DNA of 64,000 nt from an uncultured Chloroflexia bacterium (GCA_963746845.1 CAVVCZ010000004.1:128001-192000), one strand, 5' to 3'. Shown: positions 3 through 13,015, counted from the stretch's first letter. Notes: generated by a model not told the origin, from the letters alone. Numbers and translations: made by a program.

Positions 3-1088
3 GACGGGCACGTCGACCTGGCAGTTGTGAACGACGGCAGCGACACGGTGAGCATCCTCCTCGGTCAAGGCACCGGCGCGTTCGCCGCTGCGGTCCCGTA
101 TGCCACCGGCCACGTGCCGAAGGGCGCCACGATCGCCGACATCGACGGCGACGGACATCTCGACGTCCTGACCGCCAACACCGGTGGCAACGGGGACGGC
201 GTCACCGGCCGGCCCGGTGGCGACGTGATGAGCCTGCTGCTCGGGAACGGCAATGGCACGTTCCAGTCGCCGACAAGCTACCCCGCCGGTCAGACCTCGT
301 TCTCGATCACGACCGGCCTGCTCAACGCCGACAGCAAACCCGACGTCGTCACCGCCAACTGGGAGGGCAACGGCGCGTCGGTCATGTTGAACACGAGCGG
401 CGGATCCGGCCCGCCGCCTCCGTCCGACACGACCCCACCGACCGTCGACGTCACGGGAGTTTCCTTCCGGACGGCGCTGACGGCGAGCGCCACGGCCCAG
501 CCGGTCCTGGTGCGCTGGACTGCAGGCGACGACGACAGCGGCCTGGCGTCATTCGTCGTCACACGGACGATCGACGGCGGGCCGGTGGCCACGCTCGCGA
601 CGCTCGGCCCCTCCGCGCGCTCCTACGGCACGAGCATCGCGCCGGGCCATACGGCGACGTTCACCGTCCAGGCAAGGGACGTCGCGGGCAATGTCAACGC
701 CTCGGCCGGCTCGGCGCGCCCCGCGATCTACCAGGACGGGACGTCCTACAGCTCGTATCACGGGACCTGGACCACGTCCCGGAGCACCAGCGCGATCGGC
801 GGAACCACGCGGTTCGCGACGAAGACCGGAGCGAGCGCCACCTTCCGGTTCACCGGTCGCGCCGTGGCGCTCGTCGCTCCGCTGAGCCCCATCCGGGGCC
901 GGGTCAAGGTGTACGTGGACAGCGTCTATGTCACGACCGTGACCCTGACGTCGACGTCCGGACATTCCCGTCAGGTCGTGTTCGAGCGAGCGTGGACGAC
1001 GTCAGGCGCTCACACGATGACCCTGATCGCGAACGGTCCCTCGGGCCATCCGCGGGTCGACATCGATGCCTGGATGATCATCCGATAG
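3..1088 (+). CDS. FG-GAP/VCBS repeat surface protein with C-terminal beta-sandwich domains (5' partial)
   Basis: Frame open from window edge (DGHVDLAVVN); repeats DIDGDGHLDVLTAN and LNADSKPDVVTAN; Pro linker; C-terminal ...GHPRVDIDA domain. Confidence 0.85.
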   Translation, partial: DGHVDLAVVNDGSDTVSILLGQGTGAFAAAVPYATGHVPKGATIADIDGDGHLDVLTANTGGNGDGVTGRPGGDVMSLLLGNGNGTFQSPTSYPAGQTSFSITTGLLNADSKPDVVTANWEGNGASVMLNTSGGSGPPPPSDTTPPTVDVTGVSFRTALTASATAQPVLVRWTAGDDDSGLASFVVTRTIDGGPVATLATLGPSARSYGTSIAPGHTATFTVQARDVAGNVNASAGSARPAIYQDGTSYSSYHGTWTTSRSTSAIGGTTRFATKTGASATFRFTGRAVALVAPLSPIRGRVKVYVDSVYVTTVTLTSTSGHSRQVVFERAWTTSGAHTMTLIANGPSGHPRVDIDAWMIIR

Positions 1089-1218
1089 CGAGCCGACCGC
1101 GCTCGCGTCGAGGGCCGCGGCGTGGGTTCCCGCGGCGGCATCCGCTGCCGCCCTCGCCGCCTTGGCCGTCCGGACGGCATACTGCAGACCGAGCCCACGA
1201 CGATCGGATGGAGGATCC

Positions 1219-1836
1219 ATGGCACGCGATGACGAGCGCCGACGGCGCGCGGAACAGGAGCCGATCGTCGGGGGTCTGCCGGACGCCCCGGGGATCCTGG
1301 CGGCGATCCGCCTGACACCGAACCTCGGAGTCCATCTCCGAGGGCTCGCCGACGAGCTGCTCGTCAACGACTTCCCGGGTGCCACGATCAGCCGCCCGCA
1401 GCGAGAGATGCTCGCGACGGCCACGTCCGCGGCGAACGACTGCTTCTACTGCATGGACTCGCACGGCGCGTTCGCGACGGCGCTCCTCGAGACGAACGGT
1501 GCCGACGAGCTCGTGCCGCTGATCGACGAGATCAAGCAGGGGTCGTCCGACGGGCTCGACCCGAAGATGCAGGCCCTGCTCCACATCACCCGGACGGTCC
1601 GGCGCGATCCGCTCGAGCTCACGGACGCCGATGTCGCGGCGGCCCACGCCGAAGGGGCGAGCGACGGCGACGTCCAGCTCGCGGTCCTGATCGCGGCCGC
1701 GTTCTCGATGTACAACCGGATGGTCGACGGGTTCCGGGCACGGACGCCGCCGACGGCCGAGGCCTATCGCGACCGCGCCGGCGAGATCGCGGCGCACGGA
1801 TACAGCGCGCCCCAGGTCCAGTCCGTCCCGCGCTAG
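1219..1836 (+). CDS. Carboxymuconolactone decarboxylase / AhpD-like peroxidase-related protein
   Basis: REMLATATSAANDCFYCMDSH (CxxC-H) motif; GGAGG RBS before ATG 1219. Confidence 0.85.
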   Translation: MARDDERRRRAEQEPIVGGLPDAPGILAAIRLTPNLGVHLRGLADELLVNDFPGATISRPQREMLATATSAANDCFYCMDSHGAFATALLETNGADELVPLIDEIKQGSSDGLDPKMQALLHITRTVRRDPLELTDADVAAAHAEGASDGDVQLAVLIAAAFSMYNRMVDGFRARTPPTAEAYRDRAGEIAAHGYSAPQVQSVPR

Positions 1837-1867
1837 CTCCCGGGCCATCCGCGCGGCGTGCCGCCGT

Positions 1868-2254
1868 TCAACCCTTCGGCTGGACCACCGACAGGACATT
1901 CCGGCTCGGATCGAGGAACCAGGCCGCCCACGAGTGGCCCATGTCGGCGACCCCGTCGACCGTCACCGGGTCCGGCGCGGCGTAGTCCTCGATCCTGACG
2001 CCCATCGCGCGGAGCTCGGCGACGGCAGCGTGGATGTCGGGGACGCGCCACGCCATCTGCGTCTGGGTGTCGGTCGTTCCGACCGTGCTCTCGGTGACCA
2101 CGAGCTGTGTGCCGGCACCGCACCGGAAGACGATCCGGTCCGGGTCCCGGCGGGCGACCTCGAGCCCGAGCAGGTCGCGGTAGAACGTCAGGCTGGCGTC
2201 CAGGTTCGTCGACAGGAGGATGGGGAACACCGGTCCGTCGTTGAGGATGCCCAT
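1868..2254 (-). CDS. VOC (glyoxalase/bleomycin resistance) family protein
   Basis: FYRDLLGL...AWFLDPSRNVL pattern; start refined to MGILND. Confidence 0.85.
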   Translation of the reverse strand: MGILNDGPVFPILLSTNLDASLTFYRDLLGLEVARRDPDRIVFRCGAGTQLVVTESTVGTTDTQTQMAWRVPDIHAAVAELRAMGVRIEDYAAPDPVTVDGVADMGHSWAAWFLDPSRNVLSVVQPKG

Positions 2255-2262
2255 GGAATGCG

Positions 2263-2508
2263 TCAGGCCTTCGCGGCGGCTCCGCTCCCGATCGACTGGC
2301 CGATCGCGGCGATCAGCTGCCGGGCCTGCTCGCGATCCTTCTCGTTGGGGTGGTCGTGGTCGGCCATCATCCCGCAGTACACGCTGTGGATCGCCTGCGT
2401 CATCGTGTCGACGTCGGCCATCCATACGCCGCGTTCGAGGAGGGCGCCCATCGCGTCGTCCACGGTTGCGCGGTGCATCGCATCGTCGAGAGCTTCTCGC
2501 GTCGTCAT
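2263..2508 (-). CDS. Small hypothetical protein
   Basis: 81-aa ORF with GGAGGT RBS; IHSVYCG...DHDHP motif; co-oriented with the VOC gene. Confidence 0.6.
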   Translation of the reverse strand: MTTREALDDAMHRATVDDAMGALLERGVWMADVDTMTQAIHSVYCGMMADHDHPNEKDREQARQLIAAIGQSIGSGAAAKA

Positions 2509-2663
2509 CGGGGACACCTCCGCCGATAGCCTAACGCTGCGAGTGTGCCCACACCATGCGAATGCTGCGTCCCCACCTTGACCCGTGACAGCCGAACGCC
2601 GATGCTGGCGCCGGTCTCCCGAGCCACTGCTGCGTGGCCGGACGCCACTGGAGGGCTCGCCGG

Positions 2664-3674
2664 ATGAAGAACCCACCCATCCTGGTCGCGGTCATCGGCT
2701 TCTTCGGGGCGCTGGCTGGCTTCGGCTACCTGTTCTTCGGGCTGCGCGTGCTCGGCTTTGACTGGTTCGGCGCCCTGGGCGACCTGCCGGCCGTCGAGCA
2801 CGTCGGATTGTGGGGCTGGCTGGCCGTCGCGACCGGGATCGTGTGGATCCTCGCGGCGCTCGGTCTCTGGTCGCTCCAACCATGGGCTCGCCTGTTCGCG
2901 ATGCTCATCGCGGGCTTCGCGCTGTTCGAGGCGGTCCTCGCGTTCTTCAGCGCCCCCGGCAGCGGTATCGGCTTCGGCATGGCGATCATGCCCGCCCTGA
3001 TCCTGTGGTACCTGAGCACGAACGAGGTGAAGGCCGCGTTCGAAGAGGACGTTCCGGCGGAACCCGTCCCATCGGCGGCTCCCGCGGCATTCGCGGCCGC
3101 CGTGCCGGTCGCGACCAGGGCACCGGAGCCCCCTGCGGCTCCCGTGGCCGCCGCCGTGGCTCCGGTGGCGGCCGCCGCGGCCGTGACGCCTGCGGCCCCT
3201 GTCGCGCCCGCGACACCCGCGGCCCCGGTCGCGCCCGCGGCGACGCCCGCCGTGGGATCCGGAGGGTCGACGAAGCTCGTGGACATCGAGGGGATCGGAT
3301 CGTCGCAGGCGGCCACGCTCGCGGCGGCGGGCATCGTCACGACCGACGATCTGCTCCGCGCCGCATCGAGGCGCATCGACCGCGACCGGATCGCCGCGGC
3401 GACCGGGATCAGTGCGGGGCAGCTCCTGGAGTGGGTCAACAAGGCGGACCTCATGCGCCTGCCCGGCGTCGGCCCGGAATACAGCGACCTGCTCGAGGCC
3501 GCGGGCGTCGATTCGCCCGCCGAGCTCGCCCAGCGCAACCCGGCAAACCTGGCGACCACGTTCCAGGAGGTCGTCGCCGCGCGACCCGACATCGTGCGCC
3601 GCGTCCCCGGCGAAGCCGAGGTCGCGGGCTGGATCGAGGAAGCGAAGAGGCTCGACAAGGTCGTCGAGCACTGA
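2664..3674 (+). CDS. Membrane protein with Ala/Pro linker and C-terminal DUF4332 (HhH-like) domain
   Basis: About 4 N-terminal hydrophobic helices; AP-rich linker; DIEGIG...WVNKADLMRLPGVGPEYSDLLEAAGVDS. Confidence 0.8.
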   Translation: MKNPPILVAVIGFFGALAGFGYLFFGLRVLGFDWFGALGDLPAVEHVGLWGWLAVATGIVWILAALGLWSLQPWARLFAMLIAGFALFEAVLAFFSAPGSGIGFGMAIMPALILWYLSTNEVKAAFEEDVPAEPVPSAAPAAFAAAVPVATRAPEPPAAPVAAAVAPVAAAAAVTPAAPVAPATPAAPVAPAATPAVGSGGSTKLVDIEGIGSSQAATLAAAGIVTTDDLLRAASRRIDRDRIAAATGISAGQLLEWVNKADLMRLPGVGPEYSDLLEAAGVDSPAELAQRNPANLATTFQEVVAARPDIVRRVPGEAEVAGWIEEAKRLDKVVEH

Positions 3675-3801
3675 TCGCCGCGCGGTCGGCGGGCGGTCGG
3701 CCTGGCTCGAGGAGCCATTGCGGCCCGCCGACCGCCGAGACGCGCATCGCGGGCACCGCGCCCATCCCGGGTCGTTGATCGGAGTGGCTACGATAGGGTC
3801 C

Positions 3802-5532
3802 ATGCCGGACCCGTCACACCTGCATGTCACCCGGGGCGCGCCGGGGCCGGGCGACCCTGCCGTCCCTCGACGCGACGACGCGCTTCCCGTCATCCTCCTC
3901 GTGGACGACGAGGACGCGTCGCGCTCGGCGCTCCTCGAGGCCGTCGACCGACGATACGGACACGACTACGACGTGACGGCCGAGTCGTCGGCGGCAGAGG
4001 CGATGCGCCGACTGGAGGACCTGCACGAGAACGGTCGGCCGGTCGCGATGGTCGTCGCGGACCATTGGATGGCCGGCGAGACCGGCGCGTCGCTGCTCGC
4101 GCGGTCGCGCCGGCTGCATCCCCAGGCCCAGCGGCTGCTCCTGACCGACTGGTCCGACTTCACCGCCCTCGACGCCACCGTTCAGTCGATCATCCTCGGC
4201 GAGATCGACACCTGGGTCGCTCGGCCGTTCGGACCCTCCGACGAGGAGTTCCATACCGTCCTCACGGCGTCGCTCGCCCGATGGACGCACGAGAGCGATC
4301 GGGCCGGCGTGGCCCTCACGATCGTCGGCGATCCATGGGACACGGCAGCGGGCGCGCTCCGGGACGCATTCGCGCGCCTCCTCGTGCCATTCGCGTTCCG
4401 CGATGCCCAATCGCCGGAGGGCCACGCCATGCTCGAGGCGGCCGGGACCGAGGGCCCACTGCCGGTGGTGGTCCTGGCCGATGGGCGGGCTCTGGCGCAG
4501 CCGGGGTTGGCCGACATCTCGGCTGCGCTCGGCATCCAGAGCTCGGTGAGCGACGGCCGCGTCGACGTCGCCGTGATCGGCGGTGGTCCGGCCGGGCTCG
4601 CGGCGGCGGTCTACGGCGCGTCGGAAGGCCTGACCGTGACCGTGATCGAGTCGACCGCCATCGGGGGTCAGGCGAGCTCGAGCCCGATGATGCGGAACTA
4701 TCTCGGATTCCCGGCCGGGGTCACCGGTGCCGAACTGACGGCGCGTGGGTTCCAGCAGGCCCTGACGTTCGGTGCGAAGTTCGTCTTCGGCAGATCCGCG
4801 ACAGACCTTCGTGCCGAGGGCGAGGACCTGGTGCTCACCCTCGACGATTCGTCGGAGCTGCGGACGGGCGCCGTTGTCGTCGCGACCGGCGTTTCCTACC
4901 GACGGGTTGGCGTCGAACGCCTGGAGGCGCTCGTCGGGCGCGGGGTCTTCTACGGCTCCGGAACGAGCGAGGCGCGCGCGATCGAAGGGGAGCGCGTCTA
5001 CGTCGTCGGCGGCGCCAACTCGGCCGGGTCCGCGGCGATGCACCTGGCGCGGCACGCGGCCCACGTCACGCTCCTCGTCCGCGGCGGATCGATCTCGGAC
5101 ACGATGTCCGACTACCTGATCCGCGAGATCGACAACGCGGCCAACGTCGACGTCCGGCTGAGCACGGAGATCGTGGACGTCCGCGGCGACCTCAGGCTGG
5201 AGGGGCTCGTCCTGCGTGATCGGGTGACCGGAACGACGGACGAGGTGCCCGCGGCCGCGACGTTCATCCTGATCGGCGCGGCCCCGCGGACCGCCTGGCT
5301 CCCGCCGGAGGTCGCCCGCGACGACCACGGGTTCATCCTCACCGGCGAGCAGCGGCCCGATCCCACCGACGGGCTCGGCCTGGCCACGACCATGCCCGGC
5401 GTGTTCGCCGCGGGCGACGTCCGCAACAACCCCGTGAAGCGCGTGGCCGCGGCGGTCGGCGACGGTTCGACCGCCATTCGCCAGATCCACGAGCTCCGCA
5501 TCCAGCGCCGGCATGCCTCGACCCCCGTCTGA
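3802..5532 (+). CDS. Receiver domain-thioredoxin reductase-like FAD oxidoreductase fusion
   Basis: N-terminal VILLVDD...VVADHWM receiver; IGGGPAG, VVGGANSAG and PGVFAAGDVR flavoprotein motifs. Confidence 0.85.
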   Translation: MPDPSHLHVTRGAPGPGDPAVPRRDDALPVILLVDDEDASRSALLEAVDRRYGHDYDVTAESSAAEAMRRLEDLHENGRPVAMVVADHWMAGETGASLLARSRRLHPQAQRLLLTDWSDFTALDATVQSIILGEIDTWVARPFGPSDEEFHTVLTASLARWTHESDRAGVALTIVGDPWDTAAGALRDAFARLLVPFAFRDAQSPEGHAMLEAAGTEGPLPVVVLADGRALAQPGLADISAALGIQSSVSDGRVDVAVIGGGPAGLAAAVYGASEGLTVTVIESTAIGGQASSSPMMRNYLGFPAGVTGAELTARGFQQALTFGAKFVFGRSATDLRAEGEDLVLTLDDSSELRTGAVVVATGVSYRRVGVERLEALVGRGVFYGSGTSEARAIEGERVYVVGGANSAGSAAMHLARHAAHVTLLVRGGSISDTMSDYLIREIDNAANVDVRLSTEIVDVRGDLRLEGLVLRDRVTGTTDEVPAAATFILIGAAPRTAWLPPEVARDDHGFILTGEQRPDPTDGLGLATTMPGVFAAGDVRNNPVKRVAAAVGDGSTAIRQIHELRIQRRHASTPV

Positions 5533-5562
5533 GGGGTCGCGGGGATCGAGGTCGGGATCAGC

Positions 5563-5598
5563 ATGAAAGACGACATTCCGATGAAAGACGACATTCCG
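5563..5598 (+). repeat. Perfect 18-bp tandem duplication ATGAAAGACGACATTCCG x2
   Basis: Directly visible; encodes MKDDIP twice. Confidence 0.95.
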
Positions 5599-6048
5599 CC
5601 GACCGGGACCCATGGCGCGAGGATGCCGCCCGGCCGGATGCTTCGGTTCGGGACGGGCGTCGTCGCGCTGCTCTACCGGGTCACTGGTGGGCTCACTGGT
5701 GGACACCACATGCTGCTGCTCACGACGATCGGCGCCCGTTCGGGAGCCCAGCGGACCGCCTCGCTGCGGCGCTTCGAGGATGGCCCGGGTCGCTGGCTCG
5801 TCGTCGGGTCAGCCGGTGGCGCGGCCAGGCATCCGTCGTGGCTGTTCAACCTCGTCGCCAATCCCGATCAGGCCTCCATCGAAATCGACCGCGACCGGTT
5901 CAAGATCCGACCCGAGATTCTCGGTGGCGATGAACGATCCGTCGCGTGGCGACGGATCGTCGCGGAAGCCCCGCAGTTCGGCAAGTACGAGCACTCGACC
6001 GACCGCGAGATCCCGGTCGTCCGGCTGACCCGCGAGACCTTAGGATGA
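5563..6048 (+). CDS. Deazaflavin (F420)-dependent nitroreductase (DDN) family protein
   Basis: LLLTTIGARSG..R, GSAGGAARHPSWLFNLVANP, TDREIPVVRL. Confidence 0.9.
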   Translation: MKDDIPMKDDIPPTGTHGARMPPGRMLRFGTGVVALLYRVTGGLTGGHHMLLLTTIGARSGAQRTASLRRFEDGPGRWLVVGSAGGAARHPSWLFNLVANPDQASIEIDRDRFKIRPEILGGDERSVAWRRIVAEAPQFGKYEHSTDREIPVVRLTRETLG

Positions 6049-6052
6049 CCCG

Positions 6053-6736
6053 ATGACGACCCAGCTTCGCGTGCTCGTCGAACAGCCCACCCGAGGCAAG
6101 CGCTGAGTGGCCGTCGCGGCGGACTGGCCGGGTCTGGAGCGCGGCGGCAAGACAGAGGACGAGGCGGTCGAGAAGCTCGGCCGCTACGTGCCGCGCTACC
6201 TCCCCGTCGCGAAGCGCGTCCGGTTGGATACGGAGCTCGCGACCCAGACCGACCCGGAGATCATCGGCCGGTACCTTGGCGTCGGCTCGACGACTTCTGG
6301 GGCATCTCGTTCGCGCCCTCGCCGCTCGACCGCGAGCCGTTCGACGCGCCGACCTTCGACCGTCAGGTGGGGCTGCTGCGCGCCGCGGGGCCGAGTTCGA
6401 CGAGACGGCCGCCCGGGTCTCGGCGGAGCTCCGGCCCGGTCCCGGGGCGGCGGCCGCTCCCGCGACCAGATCGTGCGGCATGTCCTGGGGAACGAGGGCG
6501 GCGACTTCGCGAAGCGCGTGAAGGCGAAGACCGAGCTGGATGACCTGCAGACGCCGGGCGAGGTCGCCCAGCACCGCGACCGCTTCGTCGAGGCGATGCG
6601 CACGTGGTACGCGGAGGGCAAGCCGCTCGGCAACTGGACGGTCCCGTACCTGCTCCGCCACACGGCGTACCACGTGCTCGATCACACCTGGGAGATGCAG
6701 GACCGAAATCTGACGGACGACGCCCCCGCTGGATGA
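6053..6736 (+). pseudogene. Conserved hypothetical protein interrupted by an in-frame TGA and about 3 frameshifts (pseudogene or sequencing errors)
   Basis: ATG 6053 MTTQLRVLVEQPTRGKR*VAVAADWPG; alternative frames give TDFWGISFAPS...AEFDETAARVSAELRPG and rejoin GGGRSRDQIVRH...LRHTAYHVLDHTWE. Confidence 0.65.
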
Positions 6737-6777
6737 CTTCAGAGCGGGGCGGCGCAGCCAGTGTCGGGAGGGCGGCG

Positions 6778-7356
6778 ATGCCGGGATTGTTCAACCGGGT
6801 GTTGGGCAGGGGTCCGACTCGAGAGGCCGGAACTCCGCCGTTCACGCTTGAGCTCCCTGACGGGTGGGCGGGCGGCCACGGGAACACGGCCTACATGGAC
6901 GCGCTTCGCGACTACGCACTTGCCCACCCCGAGTGTCGCGATCGCGTGAAGGGGCTCCTGGAGAACGCAAGGGCGGACCATGGGACGCTGCTGTATGCGG
7001 CTGCCGCCGCTTGGGGTCCGGAGGCAAGACTTGTCGTGACCACCGGGGAGCTACCCCGCGACTCGGCGATCGACGATGCTCTCGAAGAATCGGTCGCCAC
7101 GAACCTCGAGGCGATCGTCTCTCGCAAGGATCTTGTCGGGGCACCGACCGCAACACGTGTCGACCGTCCATACCCAGGGCGTGTGGTCCGTTGGAGCTGG
7201 GACCATGAGGGTGCGCCGCCAAGCAGTTTCACGGCGTACGTCTTCGCTGCTGACGGCCGCCTGTGGGAGCTCACATTCGGAGCTCCGACGCGTCCGTTGG
7301 CCGCATCGGACGACGAGACATTCCGGGCAATCGCCTCCTCGTTTCGAGCGACGTAG
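6778..7356 (+). CDS. Hypothetical protein
   Basis: GGAGGG RBS before ATG; 192-aa ORF with somewhat more A/T at third positions than neighbours. Confidence 0.6.
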   Translation: MPGLFNRVLGRGPTREAGTPPFTLELPDGWAGGHGNTAYMDALRDYALAHPECRDRVKGLLENARADHGTLLYAAAAAWGPEARLVVTTGELPRDSAIDDALEESVATNLEAIVSRKDLVGAPTATRVDRPYPGRVVRWSWDHEGAPPSSFTAYVFAADGRLWELTFGAPTRPLAASDDETFRAIASSFRAT

Positions 7357-7358
7357 AG

Positions 7359-7430
7359 CCGTCCAGCGTCACGACGGTCGTGAAGCTGCCCGAGGACTGC
7401 GTGGCATTGCCGCTTCAGTCCGTCGACCAG
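7359..7430 (+). repeat. Degenerate copy C of the msrA 3' end
   Basis: GTGAAGCTGCCCGAGGACTGCGTGGCATTGCCGCTTCAGTCCGTCGAC = VKLPEDCVALPLQSVD versus msrA [16 protein letters not shown]. Confidence 0.75.
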
Positions 7431-7458
7431 CTCGCGAGTCCGCGGAGCCCTTCCCGCC

Positions 7459-7929
7459 TCACTCCGCGGCGGCGGCCAGCGAATAGAAGCTGATGGCGGC
7501 CACGGACAGCTGGATACACAGGGCGAGCGCGTACACGGTGACGGACGCGAAGACCAGAGCATTCAGTCCGAACAGGGCTGTCGCGGTGATCCCGGAGGCG
7601 ACGACGAACTGCGTCCAGCGGACCCAGGGCACGCGCGCCTGGACGAGCTGTCGACTCCGGACGCTGATGACGAAGACCGCATAGACGAAGACCACGGCGC
7701 TCGAGACGACGATCGTCGTTCGTACGTCGCCGAGCGCGGGGAAGAGCACCGCCGGCAGCAGGCTCTCGAACGTCACGTTGAAGCTCGTCGACACGATGCC
7801 GCGGAGCCGGAAGCGCTGGCCAAACGTCCAGCCGGCCCTGTCCGACCCGAGTCCCGGTGCGATCGCCGCGAAACCCGCCACGACCACAGCGATCGTTGCG
7901 ATCCCGATCAGGAGGGCCTCACCGGGCAT
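7459..7929 (-). CDS. Hypothetical integral membrane protein
   Basis: 156 aa, about 5 hydrophobic segments. Confidence 0.7.
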   Translation of the reverse strand: MPGEALLIGIATIAVVVAGFAAIAPGLGSDRAGWTFGQRFRLRGIVSTSFNVTFESLLPAVLFPALGDVRTTIVVSSAVVFVYAVFVISVRSRQLVQARVPWVRWTQFVVASGITATALFGLNALVFASVTVYALALCIQLSVAAISFYSLAAAAE

Positions 7930-8289
7930 TCGTCGCCTGGATCCGCTCGATCTCCTGCTTGCGCGTCACCGCGAACCGCCTTCGACCCAGGACCGTCCCT
8001 CGCCCGGCGAACGATGGAGGCACCGCGGCGAACGATACAGGGCATCCGGGCCAGCGGGTCGGTCGCAGCAGTCGATGGCAGCAATCGGCTGACGCACCCG
8101 GAAGACCGAGCCCGGGAGCCGATTCCCTGAACGCGCCGGGTCGAGCCATGCGCGGCTCGCCGACGCCGGACCTGAACGCCACCATGTCGTCCCGAACCCG
8201 ATCCGCATGACGTGGATCGAGGCGGAAAGCTTCCCCGGTCTGGAAGCTCGTGCAATCGAGCCGGGCCGACGTCCAATGAGCGGGAGGCT

Positions 8290-8550
8290 GACGGAAGGCG
8301 GTGGCGATCGCCAACTCGCGAAGGTCCTGCCGGACGGCGTGTTCTTCGGTGCGTCGGTGCTCGGGCGATCCGGGCGGCACACGTGGCTGGGTCGTCGGGT
8401 CCTCGCCGCGTTCAACCGGCGCGGCGCCTTCGACAACCTCGACGACTCGGAGGACGGGCTGCGTGAGATCCTCGCCGCCTCGTTCGAGAGCGTGGAGCTC
8501 GAGACGTTCAGGTCAGTCGTGGTCTTCTCCGCGTCGAAACCGCGGGCTGG
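8290..8550 (+). pseudogene. C-terminal remnant of a class I SAM-dependent methyltransferase
   Basis: RKAVAIAN (frameshift) KVLPDGVFFGASVLG...FNRRGAFDNLDDSEDGLREILAASFESVEL...VVVFSA resembles a methyltransferase C-terminus; no SAM-binding N-terminus. Confidence 0.55.
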
Positions 8551-8567
8551 AGAACCGACGCCCGGGA

Positions 8568-8645
8568 GCGGATTGCCCGGACCACCGAACGAGCGTAACT
8601 GCCGGATGACTTCGTCGTCACGCCGTTGCAGGGGACGTCGACTGG
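8568..8645 (+). repeat. Degenerate copy B of the msrA 3' end
   Basis: TGCCCGGACCAC...CTGCCGGATGACTTCGTCGTCACGCCGTTGCAG..GTCGAC = CPDH..LPDDFVVTPLQ.VD. Confidence 0.85.
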
Positions 8646-8686
8646 TCAGTTCGGTCCGCTGCGACCATGGATGAGAGGCGCTGCAC

Positions 8687-9052
8687 ATGGAGGCGAAGCG
8701 GTCGGTCCGAGTTCCCCGCAAGTTCTGGCTCGCGGTCGCCCTCGTCGTCGTGGGTGTCCTCCTTCTGGCGCAGAACTCGACCATCGTCGTTCCCGAGATG
8801 AACTCCTACGCGGTGGTCGACCAGCGCGCCATCGCGGTGAAGGTCGGCGTCGCCCCTTGCAGCTGGACGCGAGTCACGAACGTCACCGAGACGGCCACCG
8901 AAGTTCGGGTCAAGGTCGAGACGCTGCCCTGCCCGATTCCGGGACCGGGCACGGCCGAGCTTGCCGTACGTGAGCTGACGGTGTCGCTCGCCGCCGACCT
9001 CGGCGCCCGCGTCGTGGAGGACGCGAACGGGCGGCCGGTTCCTTCGCGGTAG
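8687..9052 (+). CDS. Hypothetical membrane-anchored or secreted protein
   Basis: GAGAGG RBS; N-terminal TM helix; two Cys. Confidence 0.65.
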   Translation: MEAKRSVRVPRKFWLAVALVVVGVLLLAQNSTIVVPEMNSYAVVDQRAIAVKVGVAPCSWTRVTNVTETATEVRVKVETLPCPIPGPGTAELAVRELTVSLAADLGARVVEDANGRPVPSR

Positions 9053-9097
9053 CCGAGACCAGGTCGAACCTGTCGGGGTACTGCCGCTCGGTCGACG

Positions 9098-9694
9098 TCA
9101 GCGCGGCAGCGGGTTGGGGCCGGTCGCCGTGACCAGCCGCTGGGGCACCCAGTCGTCGACGTGGTGGAACCCATCCTCGAACCGGCCACCATCGAGCTCG
9201 ACGGATGCCTGTAGTGAGAGTCGATAGAACTTTACGTGGGTGAAGTCCTCGAACAGGATGTAGACGGGGTCGGGTGTGCTGTTCGGGCCCTGGAACTGCT
9301 GTCCCGTCAGGACGGGCTTGTGGGCTTCGACGAACGGGTCGAACGTGTCGCCGACCACGACACCGAGGTGCTCCAGCCCCATCTTGTAGACGCGCTGGTG
9401 GACGGGCGGGATGAGCTCGATGAGCGGGACGACCTGGCCTTCCAGGACCTCGAGTGGCTTGGCGAGGACGATCAAGGAGATCGGGCGGCCGTTCCAGACG
9501 TTCTCCCAATTCGCGGTCGCGTGGCGCTCGAGGAGCGTCCGGACCTGGACGTAGTGGTCCCACTCGGGCACACGGTATGCGAGGTGGCTGAGCGCGTACG
9601 GGGCGATGTCGATGCCACGCGCCTGCAACCGGTCGCGCTGTTGGGCCGCGAACGATCGGTAGTCGCCGATGATGTCCGCGATCGGGTCGGTCAT
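9098..9694 (-). CDS. YecM-like VOC metalloprotein
   Basis: LSHLAYRV, NVWNGRPISLI, LIELIPP, GLEHLGVV, VKFY. Confidence 0.75.
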   Translation of the reverse strand: MTDPIADIIGDYRSFAAQQRDRLQARGIDIAPYALSHLAYRVPEWDHYVQVRTLLERHATANWENVWNGRPISLIVLAKPLEVLEGQVVPLIELIPPVHQRVYKMGLEHLGVVVGDTFDPFVEAHKPVLTGQQFQGPNSTPDPVYILFEDFTHVKFYRLSLQASVELDGGRFEDGFHHVDDWVPQRLVTATGPNPLPR

Positions 9695-9758
9695 CTCCCG
9701 CCCTCCTCCCGGCATCGTAGACACGCTCCCGGGCCTCGGTTCTCAGGTGGAGAAGTCT

Positions 9759-10199
9759 TCAGCTGAGTTGCTCGGCCAGTCCGACGATGATGCCCTCGGG
9801 GCCGCGGACGTAACAGAGGCGATATTGGTCCTCGTACTCCACCACCTCGCCAACGAGCTCGGCGCCGTGGCGCTGCAGGCGGCCCAGGACGCTCTCGATG
9901 TCGTCGACCGCGAACATGATGCGACGGATGCCCAGCGCGTTCACGGGCGCATCCTCCGGCTCGGCCCTGACCGCCGCCGGTGTGTGGAACTTGTCCAGCT
10001 CGACCCGTCCGTGGCCGTCCGGGGTCCGCATCGAGGCGATGGTGGCTCGGACGCCGTCGAGCCCGATGAGGCGGTCGACCGACTGGCCCTCGACGAGCGT
10101 CTCGCCCTCGAGCTCCAGACCAAGGTGGGCGAAGAACGCCTTGGCAGCTCCGAGGTCGTCGACAACGAGGAGGACGTTGTCCATCCGCAGAACGGTCAT
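9759..10199 (-). CDS. VOC family protein
   Basis: MDNVLLVVDDL..AKAFF, RVELDKF, LCYVRGPEGIIVGLAE. Confidence 0.9.
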   Translation of the reverse strand: MTVLRMDNVLLVVDDLGAAKAFFAHLGLELEGETLVEGQSVDRLIGLDGVRATIASMRTPDGHGRVELDKFHTPAAVRAEPEDAPVNALGIRRIMFAVDDIESVLGRLQRHGAELVGEVVEYEDQYRLCYVRGPEGIIVGLAEQLS

Positions 10200-10242
10200 C
10201 GCCGGACGATCGGTTGGGCCGGCGCCCGTCGCCTGAGGGGAC

Positions 10243-10335
10243 TCAAACGACGTACTGGAGCGGCATCACCACGAAGTCGTCCGGCAGCTTCACGCCGGTC
10301 GAGCGGTTCGGGCAGCAGCCGTTCGGCACCGTCAT
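10243..10335 (-). repeat. Degenerate copy A of the msrA 3' end (direct repeat with the native end)
   Basis: Reverse strand reads ATG ACG GTG CCG AAC GGC TGC TGC CCG AAC CGC TCG ACC GGC GTG AAG CTG CCG GAC GAC TTC GTG GTG ATG CCG CTC CAG TAC GTC GTT TGA; aligns closely with 10969-11045. Confidence 0.92.
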
Positions 10336-10390
10336 CTGCTCAGCGTACCGCCGGCCATGGCGGCAGACTACTCGACGCACGGAGGCGTCG

Positions 10391-10951
10391 ATGGGCAGGC
10401 TCATCTACACACTGAACGTATCGCTCGACGGGTTCATCGAGACCCTGGACCACTCGCTCGACTGGGGGGTCAACGATGACGAGCTCCTCAGCTGGTTCGG
10501 CGACCGGGCGCGCGGCCTGGCCGCCTCCCTCTATGGCCGCAGGTTGTACGAGCTGATGTCGGCGTACTGGCCGACGGCACAGGACGACCCCGCCGCGACC
10601 GAGCCCATGCGCGAGTTCGGGCGCCTCTGGCTGGGCATCCCGAAGATCGTCTTCTCATCGACGCTGACGTCGGTCGACTGGAACAGCCGGCTCGTCCGAG
10701 GCGACGTCGGCGAGGAGCTCGCGCGGCTGCGTACCGAGCTCGACGGTGACTTCGAGGTGGGCGGTCCCACGCTTGCGTCCGCGTTCATCAGGCGGGGCCT
10801 CGTCGACCGGTACGAGCTGGTCGTGCATCCGGTCATCCTCGGGTCCGGGACGCCGTACCTCCCGCCCCTCGACGCGCCGATCCGCCTGCGCCTCACCGAC
10901 ACCCGCACGTTCGCGTCGGGCGTGACGTACCTGGGCTACGCCACCGAGTAG
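10391..10951 (+). CDS. Dihydrofolate reductase family (RibD C-terminal) protein
   Basis: NVSLDGFI, LYGRRLYE, GGPTLA, LVVHPVILGSG; GGAGG RBS. Confidence 0.9.
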   Translation: MGRLIYTLNVSLDGFIETLDHSLDWGVNDDELLSWFGDRARGLAASLYGRRLYELMSAYWPTAQDDPAATEPMREFGRLWLGIPKIVFSSTLTSVDWNSRLVRGDVGEELARLRTELDGDFEVGGPTLASAFIRRGLVDRYELVVHPVILGSGTPYLPPLDAPIRLRLTDTRTFASGVTYLGYATE

Positions 10952-10968
10952 TCGCGTCCCCCGCGACC

Positions 10969-11646
10969 TCAGTCCACGTACTGGAGCGGCGTCACACGAA
11001 GTCGCCGGAAGCTTCACGCCGGTCGCGTGGTTCGGGCAGTAGCCGCTTCGCGGCGCTTCTTGTCGAGGTACTGCTGGTGGTAGTCCTCGGCGAAGTAGAA
11101 CGGCGGCGCCGGTGGGCCGGTGATCTCGGTCGCGATCGTGCCATAGCCGGCGGCCGAGAGCTGCTCCTGGTACATGTCCCGACTCGCCTCGGCCAGGCGA
11201 CGCTGCTCGTCGTCGTGGACGAAGATCGCCGACCGATACTCGGTGCCGCGGTCATTGCCCTGACGCATTTGCTGGGTCGGGTCGTGGCTCTCCCAGAAGA
11301 CCTTCAGGAGTGCCTCGTAGCTCGTCTTTGCGGGGTCGAACACGACCCGCACCGTCTCGGCGTGGCCCGTCCGTCCCGTGCAGGACTCCTCGTAGGTCGG
11401 GTTCGGCGTGAAGCCGCCCTGGTAGCCGACGGCGGTCGTCCAGACGCCGGGCTGCTCCCAGAACGTCTTCTCCTCGCCCCAGAAGCAGCCGAGGGCGAAT
11501 TCGGCGATCTGGAAGCCGTCGGGATACGGCCCCGCGATCGGCGTCCCGAGGACGGTGTGGTTCCGCGGCTGCAGGATCGGGGTCGAGCGGCCGGGGAGCG
11601 CCTCCGAGGCGGTGGGCATGGACGGAGAGCGGAAGAGGAACTGCAT
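10969..11646 (-). CDS. msrA: Peptide-methionine (S)-S-oxide reductase (3' end has indels)
   Basis: [45 protein letters not shown]; true tail [23 protein letters not shown] lies in shifted frames ending at 10969. Confidence 0.93.
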
Positions 11647-11716
11647 GCGCTGATCCTACGCGCGACCCCCCTCGGGGCGATGACGGTGAGGTGACGAATC
11701 GGGGGCGGCGTGACGC

Positions 11717-12964
11717 CTACGCCTCGTCGAACTCGTCGAGCTCGGCCGCCGGCAGGCTGAACCCCACCTCGGCCCCGCCGTCCTCGCGCGGCACCATCCA
11801 GGTCCGCCCGCCCATCGCCTCGATGAGCTGACGGCAGACGAACAGCCCGATCCCGGCCCCGCTCGCGACGCGGCTCGCATCGCGCGTCCGGAAGAACAGC
11901 TCGAACGCCCGCGACGCGGTCTCTGCGTCCAGCCCGATCCCGCGATCGAGCACCCGGACGATCACCTCCGCGTCCGCCCGGACCAGCTCGATCTCGATCG
12001 GCGTCGCCCGCGGGCTGTACTTCGCCGCGTTCGACAGCAGGTTGCGCACGACCTGCTCTACGTACGTCGGCTCGGCCGCCACGAGCTGCAGCTCCGGGGG
12101 TGCGCGGAACACGTATTCGTGATCGGGGTGGCGATCGCTCTCGGTCGCGACGATGTGCCGGACGAGCCGGGCGAGGTTGATCGGCTCGGCCTCGATCTGG
12201 ACCCGCCCGCCCTCGACCCGTGACAGCACGAGCAGGTCCTCGATCAACCTGGTGAGCCGGTCGGCCTCCTCCTCGATGTCGACGATCGCCTGGTCGCGCG
12301 TCTCGGCATCGAGGGCCGCGCCGCGCCGTCGGAGGATCCGCGCCAGACCGAAGATCGTCGTGACCGGGGTCCGCAGCTCGTGGCTGATGACCCCGATGAA
12401 CGCGTCGCGCAGGGCAGCCGCACGTTGCTCCTCGTCGTGGTGGCCGGCGACCTCGACCGCACCCGCGAGCACGCTGACGACCGCGGTCAGGAGCGCCTCG
12501 TCATCGGGCCCGAAGGCATCGACCTCGGTGGAGTCGACCTCGACGAGGCCGATCCCGACGCCGTTGCGGACGATCGGCACGGCGAGCCACGAGTGGACGG
12601 CGGCGCCGGCGGCCGGACCGGCGATCCGGTCGCCGTCCCGGAGGAGGTCGCCGGTCCGATACGGCGCGAGGGTCTCGACGACGCCCCAGCTCCGGCCCTT
12701 CGGGCGGCGGAGCCGCTGACCCATCGCCTCGGCGGCGAACGGCCCGATCGCGGCGCGGATCACGAGGTCCTGTCCGTCGACGAGCGCGATCGAGCCACCG
12801 GTCAGTCGGATCGCGCCGCGCAGGCGGTCGAGCGCCTCGTGGAGGATCTGATCGAGGTCCAGCTCCCCCGAGGCGGCGGCGGCGATCTCGATGATCAGCC
12901 GGGACGACGCGTCGGACCCGATGGCGGGGTCGAGCACGTCGACGGGCAGGGCATCAACGTTCAC
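11717..12964 (-). CDS. GAF-domain sensor histidine kinase
   Basis: GAF region; ISHELRTP H-box; NLLSNAAKYS; DRGIG; GAGIGL. Confidence 0.92.
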   Translation of the reverse strand: MNVDALPVDVLDPAIGSDASSRLIIEIAAAASGELDLDQILHEALDRLRGAIRLTGGSIALVDGQDLVIRAAIGPFAAEAMGQRLRRPKGRSWGVVETLAPYRTGDLLRDGDRIAGPAAGAAVHSWLAVPIVRNGVGIGLVEVDSTEVDAFGPDDEALLTAVVSVLAGAVEVAGHHDEEQRAAALRDAFIGVISHELRTPVTTIFGLARILRRRGAALDAETRDQAIVDIEEEADRLTRLIEDLLVLSRVEGGRVQIEAEPINLARLVRHIVATESDRHPDHEYVFRAPPELQLVAAEPTYVEQVVRNLLSNAAKYSPRATPIEIELVRADAEVIVRVLDRGIGLDAETASRAFELFFRTRDASRVASGAGIGLFVCRQLIEAMGGRTWMVPREDGGAEVGFSLPAAELDEFDEA

Positions 12965-13015
12965 CGGGCCATCGTACCTGCGCCCCCCGCGCCGGGCGTC
13001 TGCCCGATCAGCGAC

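Follow-up and report, generated by a model that had tools for sequence, protein, structure and literature searches.

The window analysed here is a stretch of 64,000 nucleotides from an uncultured Chloroflexia bacterium (GCA_963746845.1, CAVVCZ010000004.1:128001-192000; G000:C4:128001-192000 in our numbering), part of a metagenome-assembled genome (MAG) of 3.56 Mb in 12 contigs that is 92% complete. Near its beginning lie msrA and a run of small accessory genes punctuated by copies of the last ~25-30 codons of msrA, each ~80-95 bp long and hereafter called tails. Followed away from msrA, the array consists of msrA, its first tail, a RibD_C gene, tail A, a VOC gene, a YecM gene and then an inverted segment with tails B and C [Table 1]. 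A sequence-only reading of the window had claimed that the msrA tail is present four times, that the extra copies stand at gene boundaries and that divergence grows in the order A, B, C, all of which agrees with our results. An nhmmer profile built from the four window copies and run on the whole 12-contig genome returned exactly four significant matches, at those four places and nowhere else (E = 1e-22, 2e-19, 1e-16 and 5e-16), the next best match in the genome having an E-value of 0.07. The copies are confined to the msrA locus, with no scatter over the genome, and align in MAFFT with the common block GGCTACTGCCCGAACCAC..GGCGTGAAGCTGCC..GACTTCGT.GT.AC.CCGCT.CAGTACGT.GAC. The four-copy repeat is real and far beyond chance. 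In the raw sequence, copy C begins a few bases past a TAG at 7354-7356, copy B comes after the C-terminal half of a methyltransferase and ends ~40 bp ahead of an ATG at 8687, and the stop of copy A at 10243 is 43 bp from the VOC start at 10199; copies A, B and C score 80.6, 44.3 and 29.7 bits, respectively.

What did not hold is the label "native" for an intact resident copy, as the tail attached to msrA is itself frameshifted; moreover, copies B and C lie on the plus strand, opposite to msrA, their segment being turned round compared with the order in a related genome, G057. Two further remnants were found beyond the four copies, a partial tail behind the VOC gene and a tail-less left extension ("arm") behind the YecM gene, the latter standing exactly where the two opposed array segments meet. 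In the first tail, 12 nt replace 7 at the junction between KN and P.GYC and two single bases are lacking; because of this frameshift the msrA open reading frame (ORF) stops 27 codons early, at 11014. An intact-type tail or a close variant of it is present in 16 of the 19 same-genus loci in which msrA reaches the stop codon, the remaining loci being those of G016, whose tail is frameshifted, and of G004 and G005, which have a different tail allele. The shift in G016, the closest relative (96% protein identity), is a +1 shift at the same tail, and the two single-base sites each have one base more in a ~94%-identical metagenome contig from a public run. The indels of the first tail may reflect real decay or long-read indel errors, since long-read assemblies of relatives carry split xer genes. 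In several few-contig assemblies (G299, G344, G057) the xer genes appear as two adjoining partial matches, suggestive of frameshift errors, which bears on the trust to be placed in single-base indels of these MAGs.

Table 1. Features of the msrA locus (window positions) and partial tRNA repeats elsewhere in G000 (contig positions)
Feature	Position	Strand	Basis or remark
msrA ORF as assembled, 210 aa	11014..11646	-	early end from frameshifted tail; msrA of relatives ~27 codons longer
First ("native") msrA tail, degenerate	10967..11049	-	12-for-7 nt replacement and two 1-nt deletions
RibD_C (DHFR-like reductase) cassette gene	10391..10951	+	PF01872, 2.8e-19; convergent with msrA
Arm ahead of copy A, GGCGGTACGCTGAG...GCCGAAC	10321..10352	-	cassette-linked left extension of repeat
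Tail copy A, reading frame intact	10240..10326	-	nhmmer, alignment
VOC/glyoxalase cassette gene	9759..10199	-	PF00903
Left-end remnant of type 2 tail, CTGAGAACCGAGGCCCGGGAGCGT, behind VOC gene	9723..9746	-	comparison with relatives
YecM-family cassette gene	9098..9724	-	PF06185
Arm of YecM cassette, GAGCGGCAGTACCCCGACAGGTTCGA, tail missing; junction with inverted segment	9064..9089	-	same arm with tail in L084, L103, L119
Small secreted/membrane protein gene, cluster c26, inverted segment	8687..9052	+	no Pfam match; between tails in L120, L122
Tail copy B, frameshifted allele of type 2; inverted relative to msrA	8562..8648	+	nhmmer, alignment
Truncated methyltransferase	8207..8560	+	C-terminal ~75 aa alone homologous to full-length cassette gene
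Membrane protein cassette gene, cluster c15	7459..7929	-	85-92% identical to copies in other genera
Tail copy C, most degenerate, inverted relative to msrA	7362..7432	+	nhmmer, alignment
Hypothetical gene ending just ahead of copy C, start uncertain	6604..7356	+	no Pfam match
Recurrent variable-region gene, cluster c9	6107..6736	+	no Pfam match; either orientation in relatives; C-terminus DinB-like by eye
Partial tRNA-Thr(CGT) copies	C2:78093-92010
Partial tRNA-Leu(TAA) copies	C4:908683-911614 (908.7/911.5 kb)
Partial tRNA-Gly(TCC) copies	C5:41613-47042 (41.6/47.0 kb)		integrase remnant beside, C5:~41.8 kb
Partial tRNA-Arg(CCG) copies	C1:369494-376890 (369.5-376.8 kb)

Tail-punctuated arrays in related genomes

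The closest named relatives of this MsrA come from MAGs labelled Candidatus Limnocylindrales or Limnocylindria (Chloroflexota). A blastn search with copy A revealed clustered, co-oriented extra tails behind msrA in many of 43 genus genomes (five tails each in G057 and G041, three each in G049, G016 and G048), and a blastn search of 401 genomes of the order with an intact tail as query gave matches in 323 of the 358 genomes of the family and in 0 of the 42 of the sister family. At least two tail matches were present in about 60 genomes, by a hand count in which two candidates were scored per genome. We then compared 59 relatives' loci, hand-picked on long contigs (20 genus and 40 family loci, often from genomes with several matches), which were oriented on msrA and mapped for tails with nhmmer; ORFs in the spacers came from a crude caller filtered by GC content at third codon positions (GC3). 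Arrays were present in 37 of the 59 loci, a frequency that is overstated since 40 of the loci were chosen partly for their several matches, with as many as six copies in one locus. Every one of the 77 extra tail copies in relatives has direct orientation. The spacers between tails have a median length of 701 bp (interquartile range 484-1065, range 6-3367) and mostly hold no ORF or a single one; tails stand in adjacent tandem in L113, L088 and L084. Among relatives, the region downstream of msrA is variable rather than invariant and, where there are arrays, tail-punctuated. A literature search of incomplete coverage yielded no description of integration at msrA, nor of arrays of this kind in the lineage.

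Across 119 copies, conservation amounts to 1-1.9 bits per position inside the tail, 0.5 at the first position after it and at most 0.3 beyond, and the 12-mers that follow are of 116 different kinds: the stop codon marks the exact end of the repeat. Native genes have at least three tail alleles, each of which is also represented among the extra copies. The score of extra copies falls with rank from msrA (97.8, 68.6, 57.9, 49.7 and 46.6 bits; Spearman -0.35, p = 0.005), and in 16 of 22 arrays the score of the first is above that of the last. Diversity at codon positions 1, 2 and 3 is 0.145, 0.153 and 0.333 in extra copies versus 0.075, 0.079 and 0.244 in natives, and 14 of 55 extra copies are frameshifted versus 4 of 59 natives. 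Because the third-position bias is kept, with uniform decay on top of it, the extra copies are taken as former functional tails of several alleles.

Non-native copies are frequently extended on the left by an arm of about GGCAGTAsGCTGAC..CTGAGAAY, ahead of GGCTACTGCC, or by a shorter form, GGCAGCAGTCTCGCTGAGAAY. A strict pattern places the long arm in 25 of 63 anchored copies and inspection by eye in about 38, while the short form is present in 8; the rest have another arm or none. Arms are common to unrelated cassettes and go with the cassette upstream of them; the MarR gene, for example, has its stop codon inside the arm. A 13-mer common to the arm and the tail end (GCAGTACG..GAC) was considered as the true site, which would also separate tail-less neighbouring genes, and rejected, as its other matches are intragenic and the native QQYLD codons also fit the pattern. 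We note separately that the VOC cassette gene (window 9800-9830 and homologues) holds an internal CAGTACGAGGAC resembling the tail-end motif. Truncation of the gene in G041 falls shortly past this motif, and a duplicated arm and tail come next.

Upstream of the tail, the magnesium transporter, histidine kinase and msrA genes are conserved; downstream lies a mosaic of recurring small gene families. Those assigned by Pfam are VOC, YecM and RibD_C, while likenesses seen by eye include ABM, MarR, methyltransferase, nucleoside deoxyribosyltransferase, cupin and SnoaL-like genes as well as ArsR with SRPBCC, alcohol dehydrogenases, MsrB and membrane proteins. In L087 and L090 (genomes G143 and G338), ~3.6-4.5 kb past msrA, an msrB-like gene (methionine-R-sulfoxide reductase) is followed by an isoprenylcysteine-methyltransferase-like gene, both recognised by eye. 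The RibD_C unit stands behind the first tail in G000 and behind the third, ahead of the fourth, in G057 (93-94% identity). The VOC unit stands behind the second tail in G000 and G041 and directly behind the native tail in G054 and others, where it is 90-94% identical as against 72-75% for msrA; full type 2 tails follow it in L118, in the place of the remnant seen in the window. The methyltransferase that is truncated in the window encodes a full-length protein of 220-237 aa in relatives.

Overall, cassette identity exceeded msrA identity in 79% of 358 shared segments (at least 300 nt long and within 4.5 kb of msrA), and did so by more than 10 points in 40%. The window YecM gene is 88-96% identical to copies adjoining msrA in other genera, reaching for instance 95% where msrA is 70-74% identical. 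The YecM unit occurs in 74 of the 358 family genomes and in 16 of 43 genera; by hand tally, in 13 of the 14 genomes with both positions listed, matches at 88% identity or more are no farther than 5 kb from an msrA tail, whereas weaker matches are mostly elsewhere (about 10 of 31 near msrA, also a hand tally). G016, whose msrA is 96% identical to that of G000 in both protein and nucleotide sequence, has no tail-bounded cassette in common with it. Since cassettes are usually more alike between genera than msrA is, these comparisons point to their horizontal exchange between genera.

Cassette accretion at the msrA tail is well supported by these sequence comparisons. With modest confidence, we favour the view that the last ~31 codons of msrA (~95 bp, to the stop codon) serve as a recurrent insertion and recombination site across a soil family of Chloroflexota related to Ca. 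Limnocylindria. Small units of ~0.5-1 kb, usually with one accessory gene (VOC/glyoxalase, YecM, RibD_C, methyltransferase, ABM, MarR and membrane proteins among them), would enter directly behind the msrA stop codon, each bringing the conserved 3' arm followed by a tail copy. Newer insertions would displace older tails from msrA, the displaced tails would decay, and units would be traded between species and genera and be lost or reshuffled through recombination between tails. The fall of tail scores with rank leads us to infer that new units come in at the tail next to msrA and move the older ones farther out. As to the enzyme, there is perhaps an even chance that strand exchange is carried out near the 3' edge of the tail by a site-specific recombinase supplied in trans, with later homologous recombination blurring the linkage.

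Crossover points, recombinases and competing explanations

Linkage was analysed among 114 near-full tail copies, the pairs of which are not independent. Pairs that share the downstream cassette and differ upstream (n = 31) showed tail similarity equal to background except over the last ~20 nt (0.86-0.90 versus 0.81-0.86), and pairs that share the upstream cassette (n = 12) were alike through the arm and fell to background within ~15 nt of it. A downstream linkage that reaches into the last ~20 nt at most fits an exchange near the 3' edge of the tail. At mid-tail, the observed identity of 0.78 for tails ahead of a shared cassette equals background, as against the ~0.84 expected by hand estimate under uniform crossovers. 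Many extra tails are nearer to the natives of other genomes than to that of their host, the host's own native tail being the best match for 7 of 55 extra copies (median rank 15 of 59); the identity between the first extra tail and the resident one never exceeds 0.91. The VOC unit is followed by a type 2 tail or its remnants in three genomes. Exchange at the 3' edge followed by later recombination between tails fits these data best, and no simple single-site model fits everything.

A number of observations weigh against insertion at a defined site in the tail. Neither neighbouring cassette shows linkage to the tail core, three different tail alleles, often of the host's own type, are found behind the MarR unit, and half copies break at varied positions. 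A crossover point shared by all copies was not found, the linkage analysis of the 114 copies giving no single mappable position. The orientation of cassette genes is weakly biased (36 co-directional with msrA versus 22 opposed), some cassettes begin tens to hundreds of bases past the tail, and the choice of loci inflates the apparent frequency of arrays. No conserved hairpin emerged from the RNAalifold consensus (-3.4 kcal/mol, 0 compensatory pairs); two candidate stems pair in the consensus with covariation not above that of shuffles (53/500 and 42/500), and an inverted repeat between the arm and GYC was set aside, its stem of at least 7 being present in 43% of extra copies versus 17% of shuffled arms with few compensatory changes. 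Rfam gave no match in window positions 5000-13000. Nor did any phage, plasmid or viral contig carry the tail as an attP: the phage and plasmid searches returned ordinary msrA genes only, and two pattern scans of viral contigs were empty.

The search for recombinases adds to these points. The window had been said to hold none, and this extends to all 60 loci, whose six-frame translations (944,750 nt) gave no trace of a tyrosine recombinase at E <= 1 with a profile built from 18 tyrosine recombinases of the family; as a control, the same profile found XerC, XerD and two remnants in G000. Four PF00589 matches are present in G000, none near msrA: a full-length xerD-like gene (after recN), a full-length xerC-like gene (after topA) and two fragments. 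The genome is without a serine recombinase (PF00239), a Y1 transposase (PF01797) or Cas1 (PF01867). Most of the 43 genus genomes have two PF00589 matches, and the array-bearing G041, G049, G016 and G045 have exactly two each; there is none on the msrA contig of G041, G049 and G016, and the nearest in G052 is ~70 kb from msrA. In five array-rich genomes, most PF00589 matches belong to the two xer genes, which are often split; the others are fragments and one further full-length integrase in G344, and the sole hit to PF00239 is weak. The co-occurring tyrosine or serine recombinase that had been looked for was not found locally or, beyond Xer, in most genomes, a negative that rests on MAGs 59-93% complete and leaves room for a rare or plasmid-borne enzyme. 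Of the earlier interpretation, the repeated insertion of small units at the msrA tail is strongly supported, given the arrays of relatives, the mobile cassettes and the decay of tails; its further proposal, an attachment function of the tail in site-specific recombination, found no recombinase, crossover point or hairpin to sustain it.

Three other routes were rejected. Xer/dif modules (integrative mobile elements exploiting Xer, IMEX, and pdif) do not fit, there being no dif-type motif in the arm or tail consensus by inspection. Duplicative integration of the type of clustered regularly interspaced short palindromic repeats (CRISPR) or casposons is contradicted by the lack of PF01867 in G000 and by first extra tails at most 0.91 like the resident, and IS200/IS605 elements or repetitive extragenic palindromic sequences with their associated transposases (REP/RAYT) by the lack of PF01797 in G000 and the presence of copies behind msrA alone. 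Separately, ATAA-N6-TTAT, which we take to be a short dif-type motif, has one exact match in G000, at C4:720651 (context CCGATAAGAGAAGTTATGTC), a candidate chromosomal dif site.

Alternatively, the arrays may have arisen through purely homologous, RecA-dependent recombination, with tails acting as portable homology and no dedicated enzyme, an explanation we consider possible and the foremost of the rivals. Relatives' DNA of the form [msrA/tail - cassette - arm - tail], or circles excised between tails, would enter through two flanking crossovers, the first in either msrA or a tail and the second in a further tail; the arrays would then be scrambled by deletions and gene conversion between tails, and arms would be common by descent from one ancestral duplication. 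Much of what weighs against a defined site speaks in its favour, namely the lack of a recombinase locally and in most genomes, a tail core linked to neither neighbour, the varied breakpoints of half copies and the absence of conserved structure. To this may be added extra tails that are often host-like, as the ranks given above indicate, and arms that occur in long, short and absent forms, with varied left boundaries. In G000 itself the array is rearranged, B and C being inverted and the first tail frameshifted. The msrA gene also looks exchanged: G000 and G057 are 88% identical in the upstream histidine-kinase gene and just 70-75% in msrA (window 11014-12964 versus L060), so that one of the two lineages may have received a foreign msrA allele in place of its own. 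What counts against this explanation is that ~95 bp of homology at ~80-85% identity make a poor substrate, that mid-tail identity falls below the hand-estimated expectation for uniform crossovers, and that hotspots based on flanking homology normally come without duplication of the flank. Furthermore, many unrelated cassettes have an arm starting at the same place, and the first extra tail remains no more than 0.91 like the resident even beside cassettes 95-97% identical between genera. Rather unlikely is the stronger form of site-specific capture, in which the arrays would constitute a distinct gene-capture system of soil Chloroflexota with the msrA 3' end as the analogue of attI, arm plus tail as that of attC, and, in place of an integron integrase, a recombinase of an unrecognised kind or a recruited host enzyme; such a system would amount to an integron without integrase that evolved independently.

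Decay of integrase-bearing elements (prophages, integrative plasmids, integrative and conjugative or mobilizable elements, ICE/IME) that used the msrA 3' end as attB and have since lost their backbones would leave the textbook pattern of 3'-end integration, and processes of this kind have left marks on G000. A self-comparison of the genome revealed att-type partial tRNA repeats at four tRNA genes, flanking units of 2-5.5 kb [Table 1], and a second integrase fragment lies at C4:~295.6-295.9 kb. These tRNA islets look like classical att-site accretion and, with the integrase remnant beside one of them, indicate that integrase-driven accretion occurs in the lineage; partial tRNAs and fragmented integrases are also spread across the islands described in the tycheposon preprint. 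Accretion at tRNA genes leaves integrase traces, however, in contrast to the msrA arrays, where none was detected in 60 loci with 80 extra copies; the median unit of 701 bp is mostly too small for an integrase plus cargo, and sub-kb units recur intact in many genomes. We therefore regard decayed elements as improbable.

More improbable still is a local tandem duplication of the msrA end without horizontal transfer, or a regulatory element such as a terminator or RNA. The adjacent tandem tails of L113, L088 and L084, and an arm that resembles the junction of an in-frame tandem duplication (..LQYVD|LAKNP..), would agree with duplication. Against this pair of readings stand cassettes more alike between genera than msrA, the foreign alleles of many extra tails, the lack of an Rfam match or conserved structure, and copies with frameshifts and decay with rank. 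Least credible is an assembly artefact in a repeat-rich region of the MAG: although the assembly has 12 contigs, the native tail has indels, xer genes are split in relatives' long-read assemblies and only short, low-depth contigs, none recorded across the 9053-9064 junction, were available from the best-matching public run (which held 30% of sampled words), the same kind of array is found in 37 other independent assemblies, and short contigs of that run, possibly the source sample, match 7046-7504 (gene end, copy C and membrane gene) with 3 differences. Low-depth Logan contigs also hold the joints 11046>10250, 10321>11057 and 7455<>10270, which may come from related strains.

Comparison with known systems

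The likeness to an integron that the sequence-only reading had drawn holds for topology. As in integrons, sub-kb and mostly one-gene units each end in a repeated site of ~100 bp, growth would take place at the end nearest a fixed anchor with older units decayed farther out, and the cassettes are horizontally shared and comprise VOC/glyoxalase genes, reductases and small proteins of uncharacterised role. The msrA arrays differ in that no intI adjoins them and in most genomes none is present anywhere, that a housekeeping gene supplies their repeat in the form of its coding 3' end, with no imperfect palindrome, conserved hairpin or covariation, and that gene orientation is mixed (36:22) with the repeat not firmly linked to the upstream cassette. 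The msrA array works like an integron in topology, yet is not a member of that family, as there is neither intI nor an attC-type structure.

Accretion of integrative elements at protein-coding genes offers a second comparison. At the 3' end of fda in Streptococcus thermophilus, ICESt1 and ICESt3 are associated with tandem accretion of an ICE and of cis-mobilizable elements (CIMEs). PAISt at bacA in Streptomyces is reported as another integrative element at the 3' end of a protein gene (PMC4057263). The msrA arrays resemble these in the target, in having units between direct repeats of that 3' end and in integrase-less units that can persist or be moved in trans. Of the marks of such accretion, direct repeats ending at the gene end are present (77 of 77 direct), and a cognate integrase in some units or genomes was not found in these MAGs of 59-93% completeness; ICE and CIME units measure kb to tens of kb and at least one member has an integrase, as against ~0.7 kb and none in 60 loci here. 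Phage 21 and e14 in icd of E. coli likewise carry a replacement 3' end and displace the old one as a pseudo-copy. Homology ends at the gene's end there as at msrA, the difference being a single large prophage with an integrase versus an array of small cassettes.

In the tycheposon islands of Prochlorococcus, elements integrate again and again at one site and thereby drive their predecessors deeper into the island, which contains scattered partial target-gene copies, and most cells are without obvious transfer machinery (tycheposon preprint). One-site accretion and scattered partial target copies in a variable island are common to both systems; the tRNA or tmRNA targets of tycheposons and their tyrosine and serine recombinases, replication modules and fragmented integrases are not seen at msrA. 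The closest known counterparts are accordingly the accretion of integrase-less elements at gene 3' ends and islands of tycheposon shape, from which the msrA arrays differ in unit size and in the lack of integrase traces.

If the favoured account of accretion at the msrA tail is true, a widespread and mostly uncultured soil lineage would keep stress- and detoxification-type genes as a small, fast-turnover set behind a single housekeeping gene, and its units would be traded between genera without the usual mobility genes. The locus would provide a sequence-defined place to ask how genomes poor in mobile elements gain genes, and it raises the question of whether cassette arrays arise without integron integrases. 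The repeat is easily recognised, so that arrays may be mined from metagenomes for their cassette content.

Other features of the window and genome

A long ORF on the plus strand at window positions 3412-5532 encodes a thioredoxin-reductase-like pyridine nucleotide-disulphide oxidoreductase together with a response-regulator receiver domain, and is kept downstream of the variable region in G057. Elsewhere in G000, C1:315701-317925 holds 266-bp units of 88% identity at 255/483-bp spacing, probably a repetitive protein gene.

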